Made by a program: the position numbers and the translations under genes | In this document: one piece after another, positions 16-14,457 of the stretch | Numbering within the stretch: the stretch's first letter is position 1 | How the letters are laid out: each line of letters begins with the position of its first letter | The notes under the pieces: model-generated | Seen by the model: only the letters and a program-made list of their open reading frames with translations | Told to the model about the DNA's origin: nothing | Database searches by the model: none | Source: an uncultured archaeon | GTDB lineage: Archaea; Aenigmatarchaeota; Aenigmatarchaeia; GW2011-AR5 | Reading direction: 5' to 3' | Length of the DNA stretch: 14,457 bases | Assembly: GCA_964373695.1 (NCBI GenBank) | Contig: CAYJVT010000015.1 | Coordinates: 1 to 14,457, forward strand

Positions 16-273
16 CTAGACTATTTCTTTCTCGCTTATTATCACGAAATCGCCGACGCTTTTCACGGATGAAAACGGTATCAGAAGGCGGCTGCTCTCG
101 TCACGGTCAAGCGTAAGGTCGCCTATATGCTTTGTAGGTTCCGTGAGGACGATATTAAGGAGCTCGCCGGTATCGGAGATGAAATTTATGTCGCCGACGA
201 CGCCGAACTTCCTGCCAGTCTCTTCCGAAACTATTACTTTTCCGAGAACGTCTCTTCCCCTGCTTCGCATCAT
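16..273 (-). CDS. PRC-barrel domain protein (archaeal, CdpB-like)
   Basis: 85 aa. Pattern 'GRDVLGKVIVSEETGRKFGVVGDINFISDTGELLNIVL...LLIPFSSVKSVGDFVII' is typical of a PRC barrel. Start moved from GTG 282 to ATG 273 because the SD GAGGTGA (285-279, minus) sits 5 nt upstream. Confidence 0.85.
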   Translation of the reverse strand: MMRSRGRDVLGKVIVSEETGRKFGVVGDINFISDTGELLNIVLTEPTKHIGDLTLDRDESSRLLIPFSSVKSVGDFVIISEKEIV

Positions 274-314
274 TATAATCACCTCATATTATTTGCTTGT
301 GAAATTTTATATAG

Positions 315-1511
315 TTAGCTCTTGACGACCAAATTTTTCATGTGAGACTTCAGCTGGTATACAAAGGCGCGATCGGTGCGGCGGCGCTCTACGATACCGT
401 CATCCATGAGCCTCTTCAATATGTTATTTACGGAGCGCACAGCATGCTGGCGCGATTTGTATTTGCTCAAATCCATTGAATTGGCTATCTGCCCGGGAGT
501 CATAGGCTTCAGGAGCATTTCCATGACATCCTTCTGCATAGGAGTCATTTCTTCCATTACTTTCAGCGGCGGCGCCAGTTCCTCGGTGAGGGGCTCTTTT
601 TCCATATAATCCGCAGTGACTTTCAATCTGCCTTCCGACATCGCCTGATATATCATGTCGTTGCAAGTACGCAATATCTCCCTCGGAAAGCCGCCTGTCT
701 TATGATAAACATATTCGGATGCTTCCGGCGAGAATTCGTCGCCTGTGCCTCCTACTTTCTGTATTCTCTTTCTTATGAGATTTGCCGTTTCTTCTTTTGT
801 GAGGGATAGAAGCCCTATCTTAACGACTATCCTGCGGCGCAGCGTTTCAAGCTTATCCAAGACATGATTTTCGAATGAAGGAAGGCCTGACAGAACTATA
901 GACATGTTATCAACCTGGTCCCCGAGGACACGCAACCACTCAAGTATGTCTACACTTGATTCCTGGGCCTCGTCATACATGACAACCAGGTGCTTCTTTC
1001 TTATTCGTTTGTTCAGGAAAGATGGTATCTGGTACATATTCTTCAGCCTGAAAAAAGGCAGCCACGAACCGTATTTCTCATTAAATATCTGAACAAATTC
1101 TTCCGGGTGTTTAGGCGGCTTTCCTATATAGACATAATCGTACTTTTCCGGTAGATGGGAAGACATCCATTTGAGGGTTGTCGTCTTTCCGGAGCCTGTA
1201 GGGCCGACGATTAGAACTATCTTATGTTTTTCCTCAATAGCAGACAGCAGTTTTGACGTCTGTTCAGCATAACCTACAAACAATTCGGGTAATATAGTGA
1301 ATGTAAAAGGGTTCCCTGACCAGCCAGCTTTTTCAAGCCACTCTTTTGAGCTTATCGGCCTGCTTTCGATTTTCTCAGGAATCTGGGTTATTTGAACCTG
1401 ATTTTGGAGCGGCGTTTCTCGCATGGATTTGTCGTTTTGGGCGGGCCCATCTACCATATTTTGCCCTAGATTTTCAATATCCTGATTACTATCAATATCT
1501 TCTCCGTCCAT
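315..1511 (-). CDS. AAA+ ATPase (ExeA/AAA_22-like) with C-terminal winged helix-turn-helix
   Basis: Walker A GPTGSGKT, Walker B VVMYDEAQ, Arg-finger region LRRRI, sensor-2-like GGFPREI and an ExeA-like NPF motif. C-terminal wHTH 'MTPGQIANSM...VRSVNNILKRLMDDGIVERRRTDRAFVYQL'. The ~50-aa N-terminus is polar and probably disordered. Confidence 0.85.
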   Translation of the reverse strand: MDGEDIDSNQDIENLGQNMVDGPAQNDKSMRETPLQNQVQITQIPEKIESRPISSKEWLEKAGWSGNPFTFTILPELFVGYAEQTSKLLSAIEEKHKIVLIVGPTGSGKTTTLKWMSSHLPEKYDYVYIGKPPKHPEEFVQIFNEKYGSWLPFFRLKNMYQIPSFLNKRIRKKHLVVMYDEAQESSVDILEWLRVLGDQVDNMSIVLSGLPSFENHVLDKLETLRRRIVVKIGLLSLTKEETANLIRKRIQKVGGTGDEFSPEASEYVYHKTGGFPREILRTCNDMIYQAMSEGRLKVTADYMEKEPLTEELAPPLKVMEEMTPMQKDVMEMLLKPMTPGQIANSMDLSKYKSRQHAVRSVNNILKRLMDDGIVERRRTDRAFVYQLKSHMKNLVVKS

Positions 1512-1519
1512 GTGTCTAT

Positions 1520-1713
1520 ATGAACTTCACGGCTATAAAAAGATATTTCTGTGAACTTCATTAAATTGTTCACGATGTTCATAATTAAGTTCACGAAAAA
1601 TGTTTAATTTCACGCATTTCACGGTGAATTCACGTGAATTATGCGTGAAGTTCACGTGAATATATATGAAGTTCGTGAAGGTTTAGTGAAGGTTTAGTGA
1701 ATGTTCATATGAA
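1520..1713. repeat. Left cluster of degenerate 11-bp pseudo-palindromic iterons (GTGAA-N-TTCAC)
   Basis: TTCA(C/T) at 1526, 1557, 1569, 1578, 1590, 1609, 1618, 1629, 1651, 1704. (G/A)TGAA at 1520, 1551, 1624, 1634, 1645, 1656, 1666, 1675, 1686, 1697, 1709. Perfect palindrome AATTCACGTGAATT at 1627-1640. Tandem GTGAAGGTTTA x2 plus GTGAATGTTCA at 1675-1707. Confidence 0.9.
1534..1541 (-). promoter_or_regulatory. TATA box for a probably leaderless AAA+ ATPase transcript
   Basis: TTTTTATA on the minus strand, 22 nt upstream of ATG 1511. This spacing fits an archaeal leaderless mRNA, and no SD precedes the ATG. Confidence 0.5.
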
Positions 1714-1815
1714 GGGTATATATCTTTACTCCTATCAAATATTGTAGTAAATATCTTTATGTGAGTTAAATTAAGTAATGTCTTTATAATTATAAAATAT
1801 TTGTGAGAATTGAAA
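1714..1815. other. AT-rich core between the iteron clusters (DUE-like or promoter core)
   Basis: 1721-1810 has 17 G+C in 90 nt (about 81% AT) and no GTGAA/TTCAC motifs. AT(A/G)TCTTTA occurs three times, at 1720, 1751 and 1778. Confidence 0.6.
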
Positions 1816-1904
1816 ATGAAGTTCATATGAAGTTCACAGGATGTTCATGGACCATTCACGTGAAGTTCGTGAACTTCACGGAGTATTCACGGAACCTTCA
1901 CGGA
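1816..1904. repeat. Right cluster of 11-bp-phased iterons
   Basis: TTC(A/G)-core motifs at 1822, 1833, 1844, 1855, 1866, 1875, 1886, 1897 (spacing 11,11,11,11,9,11,11). TTCACGGA x3 at 1875/1886/1897. Palindromes TTCATATGAA at 1822-1831 and TTCACGTGAA at 1855-1864. Confidence 0.9.
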
Positions 1905-2053
1905 CATCTAAAAATCTTGTGAGGAGACATTTTACGACTTTTTAAAAAAATTCCCTCATCCAAGAATAAAATTCAAACAATCAAAACTCACAAATCATGT
2001 TAGACATTAAAAAAGCCGTTATTTAGGCGTTTTAGCTGAAAAAGGGCCAAATA

Positions 2054-2356
2054 TCATCTTTCCATCTTGTTCATCAGGCGCAGGAATTTCATTATCTGGT
2101 CAAAACTCTGGCCTTGCTGAAGCTTCTCTATTACAAATGTCTTAAGCCTGATAACTCTCAGAATAGGCTTTCCAGTACCCAATGAATTATCCTCTATAAG
2201 CGTGGCAAGCGGCCCTTCCAGGTATTTGGTCACCGTGGTCGGATGCAAGCCGGCTATTTCAGCTATCCGGCTTATCCAAATACCATCCTGATTATCAAGC
2301 AATATCCTTACTATACTACCTATTTTTTTTGAATCGAATCCCTTTTTCCTACCCAT
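2054..2356 (-). CDS. Small (winged) helix-turn-helix DNA-binding protein
   Basis: 100 aa. HTH pattern 'GIWISRIAEIAGLHPTTVTKYLE' and basic N-terminus MGRKKG. Confidence 0.8.
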   Translation of the reverse strand: MGRKKGFDSKKIGSIVRILLDNQDGIWISRIAEIAGLHPTTVTKYLEGPLATLIEDNSLGTGKPILRVIRLKTFVIEKLQQGQSFDQIMKFLRLMNKMER

Positions 2357-2488: not shown

Positions 2489-3010
2489 ATGCGCTGCTTT
2501 ATAGCTATAGACATCCCGGAGGCATTAAAACCGCGGATTGTAGGACTTCAGGAGCAGTTTTCCGGCTACAACGTAAAGCTCGTGGCGCCGCAGAACCTTC
2601 ATCTTACCCTAAAATTCCTCGGCGAAACCGAGGGCATGGGATTAGCAAACAGATTGGATTTTATAAGCAAAATACCATCTTTTGAAATAGAGCTCGCCGG
2701 CATGGGATGCTTTCCGTCTGAAAACTTCGTCCGGTCCATATGGATAGGTATAAAACATAGTCAGAAGCTTATTAACCTACAGGAGTCCGTTTCAAAGGCC
2801 CTAGGCTTCGGTGAAGAAGGATTCGTGTCTCATCTTACCATAGCAAGGCTCAGGTCCCAGAAACATAGAAATGACATCATTGATGTTATCAAAAATAACA
2901 GCTGCATCGAGATAGGTAGGATGAAGGTCACTTGTGTGAAATTAAAGGAATCGAAGCTCTCTCCAGAAGGCCCAGTATACAAAGATGTAAGAACGTTCGA
3001 GATGGTATGA
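2489..3010 (+). CDS. thpR: RNA 2',3'-cyclic phosphodiesterase (2H phosphoesterase, LigT/ThpR family)
   Basis: N-terminus MRCFIAID. Two HxT motifs (NLHLTLKFLG, SHLTIAR). C-terminal 'ESKLSPEGPVY'. Confidence 0.93.
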   Translation: MRCFIAIDIPEALKPRIVGLQEQFSGYNVKLVAPQNLHLTLKFLGETEGMGLANRLDFISKIPSFEIELAGMGCFPSENFVRSIWIGIKHSQKLINLQESVSKALGFGEEGFVSHLTIARLRSQKHRNDIIDVIKNNSCIEIGRMKVTCVKLKESKLSPEGPVYKDVRTFEMV

Positions 3011-4106: not shown

Positions 4107-4973
4107 ATGAATTATCTTGTGAAGGTTGCAGGCGATATTTATCTTCCAGTAGATACCTGCAATGCTGGTTTTACACACTATCATTCCGTCAGCATAGAGC
4201 CTGTTGAAATCAGTGTCAGGAGCAGACACCGAGCACTTCCTCATTTAAAACGTCTTCTGGGGAGTGTGAGAGAACTGGCTGATTATTCTGACGAACCCGT
4301 AGAACGCATCAATCTGCTATTTGACGGGACAGCGCCGTTTCCGGAAATATACCTGAACGAAATTCTTAGTCAGCCGGTGTTTGATTTTTTTGTTGCCACT
4401 GACTATAATAGAGAGCCTCAAAGATTCCGTTGTTATGGCCCCAAGGCAATTCTTCACGGAAACGCCCGCATTAATAAGACCCAGAGAGTAGCCGATTTGT
4501 TCGGCGACACGTTTCATCTGGAGCTTACGCATATAGGCTCTTCTGGAGTTGAAATGGTAGATACAGATGACTACGATATAATCGGCGGTCTGGAAGATGA
4601 ACATACCGAGACATGCAGAGAACAAATAAGGCTGTCGCTTTCAACGTATATGAGAGGTGCAGAACACCTTGCGGATGGAGATATGGATGCCGCGGCAATA
4701 CTATGCCTCGTTGCCGAGCTGGGTCAAGACGACATCTATGTTAGTAGAGATGAAGTTGTTGACGCTATGAGCAGCGGTTATTTGGATTTGCATTGCCAGT
4801 GTTACGACTATGGAACCGACGACGTATCGCGGATTATGGACAGCCTGGTTGACAGAGGGCTTCTGGAAGAAAGCGAAGAAGGATTTGTCATTGCTGGCGG
4901 CCACAGAATAGAGCCAAAAGAAGAAATTCTTACCATCCCGAAGCAGATGGAATTAACCCCGTGGACACAATAG
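4107..4973 (+). CDS. Hypothetical acidic protein with possible C-terminal winged helix
   Basis: 288-aa ORF filling the gap between two convergent housekeeping genes. C-terminal 'VSRDEVVDAM...DDVSRIMDSLVDRGLLEESEEGFVI' is wHTH-like. Confidence 0.7.
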   Translation: MNYLVKVAGDIYLPVDTCNAGFTHYHSVSIEPVEISVRSRHRALPHLKRLLGSVRELADYSDEPVERINLLFDGTAPFPEIYLNEILSQPVFDFFVATDYNREPQRFRCYGPKAILHGNARINKTQRVADLFGDTFHLELTHIGSSGVEMVDTDDYDIIGGLEDEHTETCREQIRLSLSTYMRGAEHLADGDMDAAAILCLVAELGQDDIYVSRDEVVDAMSSGYLDLHCQCYDYGTDDVSRIMDSLVDRGLLEESEEGFVIAGGHRIEPKEEILTIPKQMELTPWTQ

Positions 4974-6725: not shown

Positions 6726-6866
6726 ATGCTTCCGAAATGCTGCGGAAAACAAATGCTGACTAAAACAGAAAGTATCAGATTCATGGAACTCATGTGTAAA
6801 AAATGCGGCGACGTCATATACATAAAAAAATCCGAGGCGCAGATTCCGCAGCTTCTGGACGATTAG
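6726..6866 (+). CDS. Small zinc-ribbon protein (46 aa)
   Basis: MLPKCCGKQMLTKTESIRFMELMCKKCGDVIYIKKSEAQIPQLLDD*. CC...CxxC ligands, strong SD GAGGTGA at 6713-6719 (6 nt before the ATG), and a stop overlapping the dnaG stop. Below the ORF-track length cut-off. Confidence 0.8.
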   Translation: MLPKCCGKQMLTKTESIRFMELMCKKCGDVIYIKKSEAQIPQLLDD

Positions 6867-8041
6867 GCCGAAGGCTCACACTTCAGGTCCTGGATCGTAA
6901 GAAGCTTTGTCCCAACAGACCTTACGCGCTCCCTGAATCCCATCCCAACAATGTATGAAATCCTGCGTTTGTTGGCGATGTCGACTATGGGCTGGTTTAT
7001 CTTACCGTCAAAAACTATAGCGTAAATGTTGCCGAAGCTGTTGATGGCCTCCCCGACCTCGCTTATCGGCACCTTGCTCAATGTCTGCATATCGGAATCG
7101 ACGATATACGCGGCGCGTGTGCCCACAAGACCTTCTAGCATCGTGGCGAAGAATTCCCTCTCCTTCAAATCATCCCTAGGTTCCTGCATCTCTGGCTGCG
7201 CATCCGGCTGGGGCGGCGCCTTATCGCTGCCTGTCTGGTTTATCGGAACCCTGTCCCGCAGGGCCTTGAAAATTTCCTTTCTTGAAAGCTCCTCGACTTC
7301 CTTCCCGAATTGCGCCCTCGTGATGAAATCTATCTCGGCTACTGCAAGGAGTTTTTTCAAGTCCAAATCCCCTCCGCGGTCACCGTCCAAGAATGCCGTT
7401 GTCGTCTTCTGCTTCGTCAAGTCCGCGACTTCCTGCGGTATCTTGCTCCCCTCTATGGCCACAACGTTTCTTATGCCGTTTTTCAGGAGATTTATCACAT
7501 CAGCTCTTCCCTCGACTATTATTATTTCGTCAGAAGTCATGATATCAGGTCCAGCACTAAGTCCTTGGTAGTTTATTACTTCCCATGAACGGACTGCCTC
7601 CTTTACTATTTCAGATATCTTCTGGGAATCCGGCATTCCTTGGTCCATCACAGACCTGAGTATATCCTTCGCCCTCTCTATGACGTATTGCCTTTTCTGG
7701 CTTCTAACGTCCTCGACACTTATGATATCGACCTGCGCGTCGCAGGGCCCTATCTTGTCTATCGTCTCCATAGAGGCGGCTATAAGGGAGGTTTCGCTTG
7801 CATCGAGGCTTGATGGTATGATAACCTCAGCCATTGACCTACCCTTGTTGGTCTTCACGTCGACCTCTATGCGGCCTATGCGGCCCGTGTGCTGCAGTTC
7901 CCTGAGATCCAGCTCGGAGCCAAGCAGGCCTTCCGTCTGGCCGAATATAGCTCCTATTATGTCTGGCCTCTCAACGACGCCCTTGGCGTTCACCCTCAAT
8001 TTGATTACATATTTCGCAAAATTCTGGGCCAATTTAGCCAT
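6863..8041 (-). CDS. dnaG: Archaeal DnaG-type primase (TOPRIM; exosome-associated in archaea)
   Basis: 'KYVIKLRVNAKGVVERPDIIGAIFGQTEGLLG', 'LRELQHTGRIGRI', TOPRIM motifs VEGRADV and FLDGDRGG. Start at ATG 8041, which lies 5 nt after the SD GGGTGA. Confidence 0.95.
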   Translation of the reverse strand: MAKLAQNFAKYVIKLRVNAKGVVERPDIIGAIFGQTEGLLGSELDLRELQHTGRIGRIEVDVKTNKGRSMAEVIIPSSLDASETSLIAASMETIDKIGPCDAQVDIISVEDVRSQKRQYVIERAKDILRSVMDQGMPDSQKISEIVKEAVRSWEVINYQGLSAGPDIMTSDEIIIVEGRADVINLLKNGIRNVVAIEGSKIPQEVADLTKQKTTTAFLDGDRGGDLDLKKLLAVAEIDFITRAQFGKEVEELSRKEIFKALRDRVPINQTGSDKAPPQPDAQPEMQEPRDDLKEREFFATMLEGLVGTRAAYIVDSDMQTLSKVPISEVGEAINSFGNIYAIVFDGKINQPIVDIANKRRISYIVGMGFRERVRSVGTKLLTIQDLKCEPSA

Positions 8042-8270
8042 TAAAATCACCCTCTTGTTATATCCGCCGGTTTTCCGGCCAAATGGCAGAAATAGGCATG
8101 ACTAAAAACAGAGCACACCTTTGCCGCATTGGAGCGGCTCATGAATCTTCAGCATGAATTATTACCTTCCGTGAATCATGACTGCCATTAAACAATGAAC
8201 TATCATTGTATATTGATTGTAATGCACAAATGTTTAAAAACCTATTATTTTCACTACTTTTAAATGATTA

Positions 8271-8681
8271 TCAGGACTTCATGCTTTCCTCTATGCGCTC
8301 ATCGAGCTTCTTCAGGTTCTCGATTGAAAGTTTTCTGACAGCCGGGTACATATTCTTGAGGTAAAACTCCGACAAAACGGACGACATGAACCCCCTTTCC
8401 TCCATATTGACGTCAAAACTGCCGGTTATGTTCACGGAAAGCCTTTTCTGGGCGCTCCGCATGAGGACTGACATCTGAATCCTGGAGAATTCGTCCACCA
8501 TGCTTACTATGTCAAATTCAAGCGCGCTCCTGTGCTCTGGGCCGTCTGTCATGTACTCGTTCCTTCTCTCGAAAACCTGACCCATCTCAGACGCTTGGTC
8601 CATGAATTTCAGGGAGAACCCATACGGATCGTCCTTCTCCAGGACGAAGTTCTTTTCCATCACGGACTCCTCTATCTTCAT
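8271..8681 (-). CDS. Hypothetical protein (136 aa)
   Basis: Protein-like composition, ATG start, divergent from hjc, no better overlapping ORF. No recognisable motif. Confidence 0.7.
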   Translation of the reverse strand: MKIEESVMEKNFVLEKDDPYGFSLKFMDQASEMGQVFERRNEYMTDGPEHRSALEFDIVSMVDEFSRIQMSVLMRSAQKRLSVNITGSFDVNMEERGFMSSVLSEFYLKNMYPAVRKLSIENLKKLDERIEESMKS

Positions 8682-14204: not shown

Positions 14205-14457
14205 AATGTCCGGTCTGGCGAAAGTATATTTAAATTAAACAAACTAGCAGCATCACGGTACCACAGAGACCCTGTTATTTCTGTTGGAATGTTATGTATA
14301 TGTGGATTGGGAATTTTCTTTATTTAATAATTATTTTATTTTCAGTAGTAATGAAGAACAAGTTCTCTTTTCTAATTATATTTTTCCATACTTAAAGATT
14401 TTACTTTCATGTTATATATTTTTCTATTGAATATGATTTTTAATATATTTTTTAATA

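Follow-up and report, generated by a model that had tools for sequence, protein, structure and literature searches.

A helically phased box array beside an Orc1/Cdc6-shaped AAA+ ATPase gene near the replication origin of Aenigmatarchaeota: a candidate self-regulating protein-DNA assembly

The window analysed here is the whole stretch of 14,457 nucleotides which opens contig C15 (CAYJVT010000015.1) in the genome of an uncultured archaeon of the Aenigmatarchaeota (G000; 1.02-Mb, 60 contigs, 91% complete). Among the closest protein matches, those which name a source carry the label Aenigmarchaeota. Near its left end lie three genes which, as a preliminary description of this DNA had stated and as the positions and strands of the open reading frames (ORFs) bear out, are all oriented on the minus strand around an array of short repeats. 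They code for a small winged-helix protein of 100 aa (P0002, positions 2054-2356), an AAA+ ATPase of 398 aa with a C-terminal winged helix (P0001, 315-1511) and a CdpB-like PRC-barrel protein (16-282). The array is housed in the 542-bp spacer between the gene for the small winged-helix protein and the ATPase gene, and the array and the ATPase are the main subject of what follows. Full-text searches of the literature gave no description of this ATPase-array system.

The array contains 32 boxes of the form TTCAY or RTGAA within positions 1518-1910, that is in about 400 bp. In block 1 (1518-1713) TTCAY boxes come first and RTGAA boxes after them, in two convergent runs with a phase of about 10.5-11 bp. 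Block 1 is followed by a box-poor gap (1714-1814) which in this genome is 79% AT and carries two TGTGAG boxes (1760-1765 and 1802-1807), and then by block 2 (1815-1910), in which mostly TTCAY boxes are set in exact 11-bp steps (1822, 1833, 1844, 1855, 1875, 1886, 1897). Two more TGTGAG boxes are found in the region 1919-1992, one at 1919-1924 on the plus strand and an inverted one at 1987-1992 on the minus strand. The word TTCACG, which is expected 6.2 times in the whole window, occurs 27 times, and 17 of these matches fall within 1526-1902. Boxes on the same strand are mostly 9-12 bp apart with a peak at 10.5-11 bp, and the strength of the phase is maximal at 10.5 bp (0.71 and 0.81), which was not reached in any of 2000 random placements.

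The array has no counterpart elsewhere in the 1.02-Mb genome. Windows of 400 bp contain 0.93 boxes on average, and the runner-up contains 6 against 22 at the array; beyond the array, phased box pairs and palindromes occur only sparsely and at dispersed places. When the 200 bp upstream of 1441 ORFs in the genome were inspected each had at most 4 boxes, as compared to 15 for the ATPase gene. The three ftsZ genes have none and the MCM-like ORFs 1-2, and the 200 bp preceding orc1 showed neither GTGAA nor TTCAC.

Boxes at 1520-1530 and 1551-1561 flank a TATA-like box, TTTTTATAG, which lies at 1534-1542 on the minus strand about 25 nt upstream of the ATG of the ATPase gene. Read from the sequence, this element is a good candidate for the ATPase promoter, which would then lie inside the array, and a promoter placed between the boxes points to autoregulation. 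Phased boxes on both sides of a TATA-like box, at the sole such site in the genome, are also the layout of a centromere which overlaps the promoter of its own partition system; a centromere action of the array is putative.

The arrangement is not peculiar to this genome. The order small winged-helix gene, array, ATPase gene, PRC-barrel gene is found again in 17 to 19 of the 19 loci taken from other genera, and genes and array are thus co-conserved. Counted from the ATPase start the layout in these 19 loci is a TTCAY run, an RTGAA run, a box-poor gap of 50-125 bp and a second TTCAY run, each run typically having 7-10 boxes and the locus as a whole 25-40 phased boxes. The same-strand spacings are again close to one helical turn: 11 bp (173), 10 bp (70), 9 bp (51) and 12 bp (40). 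A different construction is seen in family f13, where the array (G127, L103:6659-7300) consists of higher-order units of about 100 bp, each containing several GTGAAC boxes, almost without exception in one orientation, together with a TTCACGTGAA palindrome.

The ATPase is present in 35 of 41 close relatives and in 108 of 151 genomes sampled across Aenigmatarchaeota, as a rule in one copy. In families f18 (two weak matches in 32 genomes) and f20 (none in 7) it was not found. Some genomes have extra, weaker copies (G142:C1:432575-433291, G140:C6:5393-6241, G075:C2:700-1770 and G148:C12:4193-5170); some of these are split or have stop codons, and they may be decaying paralogues or borne by mobile elements.

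By sequence the ATPase belongs to the ExeA/AAA_22 lineage. It matches the Pfam model AAA_22 (PF13401) with 50.8 bits against a cut-off of 27, and the ExeA-like model TIGR03015 over residues 90-304 with 78.9 bits (E 4e-22), which is below the equivalog cut-off of 324.5. The Orc1/Cdc6 model TIGR02928 gives 15.5 bits (E 0.0058, cut-off 181.3) and covers only the P-loop residues 94-123, whereas the true Orc1 genes of the same genome score 408.8 and 205.3 bits. The view of the preliminary description that the protein is ExeA/AAA_22-like rather than a Cdc6 is therefore upheld. The family profile was run against 1.84 billion representatives and collected roughly 50-60 full-length clusters. The next group (E about 1e-50) has N-termini with TPR and zinc-ribbon domains and is without the winged helix; ExeA/GspA proteins with peptidoglycan-binding domains rank after this group, PG_binding being found in distant relatives only. 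The TPR/zinc-ribbon relatives (P0168, P0171, P0175, P0187) share the AAA_22 motor in an architecture which is uncharacterised. A search of PDB sequences with the family profile, and a PADLOC scan, gave P-loop matches only, those of PADLOC being weak.

An alignment of 30 homologues shows that the catalytic motifs are intact: Walker A, GPTGSGKT at 103-110, and Walker B, DE at 180-181, are invariant, as are R227 and R277, which from their positions would be the arginine finger and sensor 2. Also invariant is a C-terminal stretch, KYKSRQHAVRSVNN (residues 350-363), which forms the recognition helix of the winged helix in the AlphaFold2 (AF2) model. This model, with a predicted local distance difference test (pLDDT) of 80.8, consists of a disordered N-terminus of 46 residues and the base and lid of the AAA+ part, from which a linker of weak prediction quality (306-314) leads to the winged helix (324-387). 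Its best full-length fold matches are archaeal Orc1/Cdc6 proteins: 1w5s with Z 19.2 over 323 residues, and 2qby, 1fnn and 2v1u with Z 18.4-18.9, with base, lid and winged helix all covered; the Foldseek matches to Orc1/Cdc6 have E-values from 2e-12 to 1e-10. MuB and TnsC, two further proteins with which the preliminary description had proposed a comparison, follow with Z about 17 in the AAA+ part only, and clamp loaders with Z about 15. The preliminary description had also recognized AAA+ plus winged helix as the Orc1/Cdc6 architecture, and the fold matches agree. Sequence and model together thus describe an ExeA/AAA_22 protein in its motor which is predicted to have the shape of Orc1/Cdc6.

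Which protein reads the boxes can be approached by looking at loci which lack parts of the arrangement. L046, L047, L050, L051 and L041 are without the gene for the small winged-helix protein, and their spacer is about 100-170 bp and adjoins the LigT gene. They have no gap and keep 3-7 boxes, which flank a TATA-like element immediately upstream of the ATG. GTGAA is the commonest word upstream of the ATPase gene in most of 20 distant loci, and the core of the recognition helix, A-x-R-S-x-N-N-x-L, is found in 19 of 20 distant orthologues, the exception being L049 with RA for RS. As the GTGAA boxes are kept where the small winged-helix gene is missing, and the core of the recognition helix is conserved, the boxes go with the ATPase.

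The small winged-helix protein itself has weak matches only to helix-turn-helix (HTH) models in Pfam. Its AF2 model (pLDDT 84) shows a winged helix of generic type which matches MarR and TFE-alpha weakly, and its gene is found upstream of and co-oriented with the ATPase gene in 17 of 19 near loci. The HTH gene of the preliminary description is thus a winged-helix gene by prediction and is co-oriented as described; as a constant part of the module it does not stand, since it is missing in many lineages. Of 25 loci with an HTH match 22 have at least two copies of TGTGAG with a strong orientation bias, as compared to 3 of 14 loci without such a match; these counts are drawn from related loci and are not an independent statistical test. 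We infer from this co-occurrence that the small protein probably reads the TGTGAG boxes.

The PRC-barrel gene most likely starts with the ATG at 273, six bases after the Shine-Dalgarno sequence GAGGTG and 41 nt after the ATPase stop, and the earlier statement of a gene 41 bp downstream with its own Shine-Dalgarno sequence is correct. The protein has a single PRC-barrel domain (PF05239, 26.2 bits against a cut-off of 21.2) and resembles solved archaeal PRC-barrel proteins (8qzo, E 7.8e-7; 8onw, E 0.006), a family which, as the preliminary description had it, includes the CdpB division proteins. An orthologue follows the ATPase gene in 18 of 19 near and 17 of 20 distant loci and has with few exceptions the same orientation; the two genes are probably co-transcribed. 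In haloarchaea CdpB proteins act in division based on FtsZ and SepF (10.1101/2023.03.28.534520). Like CdpB of Haloferax (bioRxiv 10.1101/2023.03.28.534520, 10.1101/2023.03.28.534543) the protein described here is a small one with a single PRC-barrel domain, in a genome which has FtsZ and SepF (two PRC-barrel, two sepF and three ftsZ genes). The likeness is at the family level and does not distinguish orthology to CdpB1, CdpB2 or CdpB3, and the survey of gene neighbourhoods in the CdpB paper lists Cdc48 and EngB, not the ATPase.

The preliminary description had raised the question of a canonical cdc6/ORB origin, and one is present. The Orc1/Cdc6 gene which scores 408.8 bits is located just beyond the window, at C15:15003-16115. 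Upstream of it are at least five elements resembling the origin recognition box (ORB), TTCCA-N3-GAAA-N5-GGGTC, in both orientations around an AT-rich stretch (C15:14202-15002 together with window 14267-14457). The left edge of this origin is still inside the window, at 14267-14457 and outside the module: it comprises the leftmost ORB-like element, AGACCCTGTTATTTCTGTTGGAA, at 14267-14289 and the start of the AT-rich stretch, which is interrupted by a scaffold gap of 100 N starting exactly at the window end. The ORB elements from 14267-14289 onward place the canonical origin 12.4 kb from the array, the distance to ORB elements and orc1 being 12.4-13.5 kb. The boxes of the array are GTGAA/TTCAC and are not ORB, and the ORB elements adjoin the true orc1 gene. 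The second Orc1/Cdc6 gene, the one with 205.3 bits, is a shorter match (G000:C23:5527-6294, L002) covering model positions 1-270 of 366; inside it, at C23:6070, lies a perfect TTCACGTGAA palindrome, probably by chance.

Closeness to orc1 is the usual condition. Wherever the ATPase gene and the main orc1 gene share a contig, which they do in 49 genomes, they are 0.35-58 kb apart, with a median of about 16 kb, and contigs of 270-875 kb make no exception. The two genes are adjacent in family f13, and the order in G127 is array, ATPase, ORB/AT-rich/ORB, orc1, with oriC about 1.1 kb from the array. Array size and distance to orc1 are not strictly related; the minimal arrays of family f14 are 3.7-15.7 kb from it. 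The GC/AT skew of the single-contig relative G142 (874,869 bp) gives a weak and uninformative signal: the cumulative curves turn at 48 kb and at 288-503 kb, away from both orc1 (690 kb) and the ATPase gene (664 kb). Between array and origin in the window lie the genes for LigT (2489-3010) and a DnaG-like Toprim protein (6863-8050), which together with orc1 form a conserved origin-proximal gene block.

The uniqueness of the array, its helical phasing, the conservation of both box and recognition helix and the intact catalytic and inter-subunit residues fit a cooperative assembly of the ATPase. The array would in this case be a docking platform on which the ATPase assembles in an ATP-dependent manner along one face of the DNA. 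Our preferred interpretation, which is tentative and which we hold to be somewhat short of probable, goes further and proposes a self-regulating, ATP-dependent protein-DNA assembly which marks a site near the origin for a task in the cell cycle. The model can be formulated as follows. An AAA+ motor of the ExeA/AAA_22 lineage, in the base-lid-winged-helix shape of Orc1/Cdc6, would read (C)GTGAAG boxes with its invariant recognition helix. The ATP-bound protein would line up with about one protomer per helical turn on one DNA face, and the assembly would span the three runs of roughly 7-10 boxes with their alternating orientation. Occupancy of the boxes would throttle transcription of the ATPase gene and probably also of the PRC-barrel gene 41 nt downstream. 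In lineages rich in boxes the small winged-helix protein, bound to TGTGAG boxes in the gap and at the edge of the array, might modulate or bound the assembly. The outcome would be a single large complex on each chromosome, in most cases 0.35-58 kb from oriC/orc1, which might serve as a landmark of the origin region in segregation, in coupling to the FtsZ/SepF/CdpB divisome or in control of replication timing. A role in segregation or division is possible. The more specific version, in which a filament on the origin-near array is a centromere or landmark coupled through the CdpB-like PRC-barrel protein to the SepF/FtsZ divisome, we regard as rather unlikely.

Several observations weigh against the assembly model. 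A PRC-barrel orthologue is present in 146 of the 151 genomes, including f18 (32 of 32) and f20 (7 of 7) in which the ATPase was not detected; in family f13 it is on another contig than the ATPase gene, and co-loss of the two was not seen across the 151 genomes. The PRC-barrel gene is thus kept without the ATPase and unlinked from it in f13, so that the link between them is probably one of co-transcription and not of dependence, and the proposal that it is part of the module is supported by gene order in most loci and weakened by this distribution. The gap is not AT-rich in most relatives, where TGTGAG boxes are conserved instead, and an AT-rich core is therefore not a conserved feature. To judge from the minimal lineages, a few boxes at the promoter suffice for the job of the protein, and the large array may be an elaborate operator. 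As to the origin, the distances between ATPase and orc1 genes are biased by fragmentation, as short contigs can reveal short distances only, and a separation of more than 70-80 kb is required for G043 and G052. It should also be noted that dnaG shares the orc1 neighbourhood in 5 of 5 genomes, between or beside the ATPase and orc1 genes; since dnaG keeps the same neighbourhood the linkage to orc1 may be plain synteny of a conserved origin-proximal block.

The most serious alternative takes the array to be an operator and nothing more. The ATPase would be an ATP-dependent transcription factor with its own operon (ATPase, PRC-barrel and perhaps the small winged-helix gene) as its sole DNA target, and the many boxes would merely sharpen cooperative autoregulation with no structural role at the level of the chromosome. 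We consider this doubtful and still nearly as likely as the assembly just described. It agrees with a promoter embedded between boxes, with minimal lineages which keep their 3-7 boxes around the promoter only, and with a genome that offers no other target; there is also precedent in Orc1-2 of Sulfolobus, an Orc1/Cdc6 protein which acts as a transcription factor, and in DnaA, which autoregulates dnaA. It has to account, however, for 25-40 phased boxes in three runs, the distal run being 300-400 bp from the promoter, which is far beyond known archaeal operators, and for AAA+ catalytic motifs which are fully conserved. Moreover, a regulator that regulates only itself is pointless, so that in a genome without another target another output is needed, and none is visible beyond the downstream PRC-barrel gene. 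Candidates for this output are the co-transcribed PRC-barrel gene and a structural role of the complex near the origin. A second replication origin, in which array and gap would be fired by a non-Orc initiator much as oriC3 of Sulfolobus with WhiP, is unlikely. The ATPase has an initiator-like fold, and its gene adjoins putative cognate arrays in opposed orientation around a gap which here is AT-rich, a layout like that of dnaA/oriC and orc1/ORB. But a canonical orc1 gene with ORB elements lies at the distance given above, and only about 1.1 kb away in G127, so that a non-canonical initiator of the chromosome, as suggested in the preliminary description, is not needed, and a second origin so close by has no obvious use in a genome of about 1 Mb. 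The gap speaks against it as well, which in most relatives is not AT-rich and has conserved TGTGAG boxes and which is absent from the minimal lineages, and so do families f18 and f20, in which the ATPase was not found.

Two further explanations carry far less weight. That the locus is a domesticated or integrated cassette from a plasmid or virus, with a Rep or partition protein and its iterons, is very improbable. An iteron-like array next to an NTPase gene, a PHROG match to a MuB-like DNA transposition protein (E 8e-11) and the extra, partly broken copies of the ATPase in some genomes would be expected of such a cassette; the gene has, however, hardly more than one copy per genome and keeps its neighbours (PRC-barrel, LigT, dnaG, orc1) throughout the phylum. 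The window has no tRNA, the ORFs scanned gave no integrase domain, and the GC content of the locus, 0.45-0.47, is that of the rest of the window. We find it least credible of all that the repeats act as nucleic-acid structure, either as a long hairpin in the 5' untranslated region or as a DNA cruciform, and not as protein sites. Block 1 does have a predicted fold as a long hairpin (-55.2 kcal/mol, z -8.4), but convergent boxes necessarily pair, and the pairing involves the box cores only, as in any convergent array. The TATA-like box 25 nt from the ATG would put most boxes upstream of the transcript, block 2 has a single orientation, and an Rfam scan gave no credible match. Nor do the orthologues lie in a secretion context, in near or in distant loci: the ATPase ends in a winged helix in place of a peptidoglycan-binding C-terminus, and its neighbours are the PRC-barrel, winged-helix and LigT genes. 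The locus is a vertically inherited chromosomal protein-DNA module and neither a mobile element nor a canonical origin.

The assembly model can be compared to known systems which combine a DNA-binding protein with repeats. The closest sequence family, ExeA/GspA, TniB/TnsC and MuB, includes proteins (MuB and TnsC) which form filaments on DNA. The module differs from these in having neither peptidoglycan-binding nor transposase partners and in its predicted sequence-specific winged helix. With Orc1/Cdc6 and ORB, as in the Sulfolobus origins, it shares the AAA+ base, lid and C-terminal winged helix, a gene located next to the presumed target repeats and the opposed orientations of these. It differs in its motor, in that true Orc1 genes and ORB elements coexist with it in the same genome, and in its boxes of 5-8 bp at one-turn spacing in 25-40 copies. 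The origin of Methanothermobacter has many 13-bp mini-ORB boxes which are bound cooperatively by Cdc6. In bacteria arrays of DnaA boxes are found in the left and right arrays of oriC, in datA and in the dnaA promoter. The similarities to DnaA are an AAA+ protein with a DNA-reading domain, arrays which run in opposite orientations with about 11-bp spacing, a promoter which itself contains boxes and a position near the origin; the module ATPase is unrelated to DnaA in sequence beyond AAA+ and has a winged helix instead of domain IV. Plasmid centromeres offer another parallel. In parC of R1 two sets of five 11-bp iterons, bound by ParR, flank the par promoter, and the heptad arrays of omega protein are centromeres which double as operators. 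These centromeres have in common with the module short helically phased repeats which flank their own promoter at one site per replicon, and they combine autoregulation with a structural role as is proposed here. They are different from the module in that its NTPase is an AAA+ protein with its own DNA-binding domain, not a ParA, ParM or TubZ, and in that it is chromosomal and conserved throughout the phylum. The AAA+ motor also sets the module apart from the DNA partition systems ParABS, ParMRC, TubZRC and SegAB, where an NTPase of the ParA, actin or tubulin type would be expected.

Chromosome segregation and the coupling of replication to division in archaea of the FtsZ type, especially in DPANN, are largely unknown, and the locus provides a defined cis site found throughout a phylum together with a putative cognate ATPase which can be expressed directly. 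If the assembly model is true, the design of Orc1, an AAA+ motor with a winged helix reading adjacent repeats, would have been assembled again on a motor of the ExeA lineage, in a geometry of one box per helical turn which is closer to that of DnaA or plasmid centromeres than to that of ORB. Should the centromere or landmark version hold, the position of the origin would be linked to division or segregation. If the array is an operator only, it would still be an unusually large and regular one.

Two other ORFs in the window, at 4107-4973 on the plus strand (288 aa) and 8271-8681 on the minus strand (136 aa), gave no Pfam match at E 0.001. Elsewhere in the genome, at G000:C17:2813-7924, is a 1703-aa ORF with an MCM-type DEFDK motif, the length of which suggests inteins.

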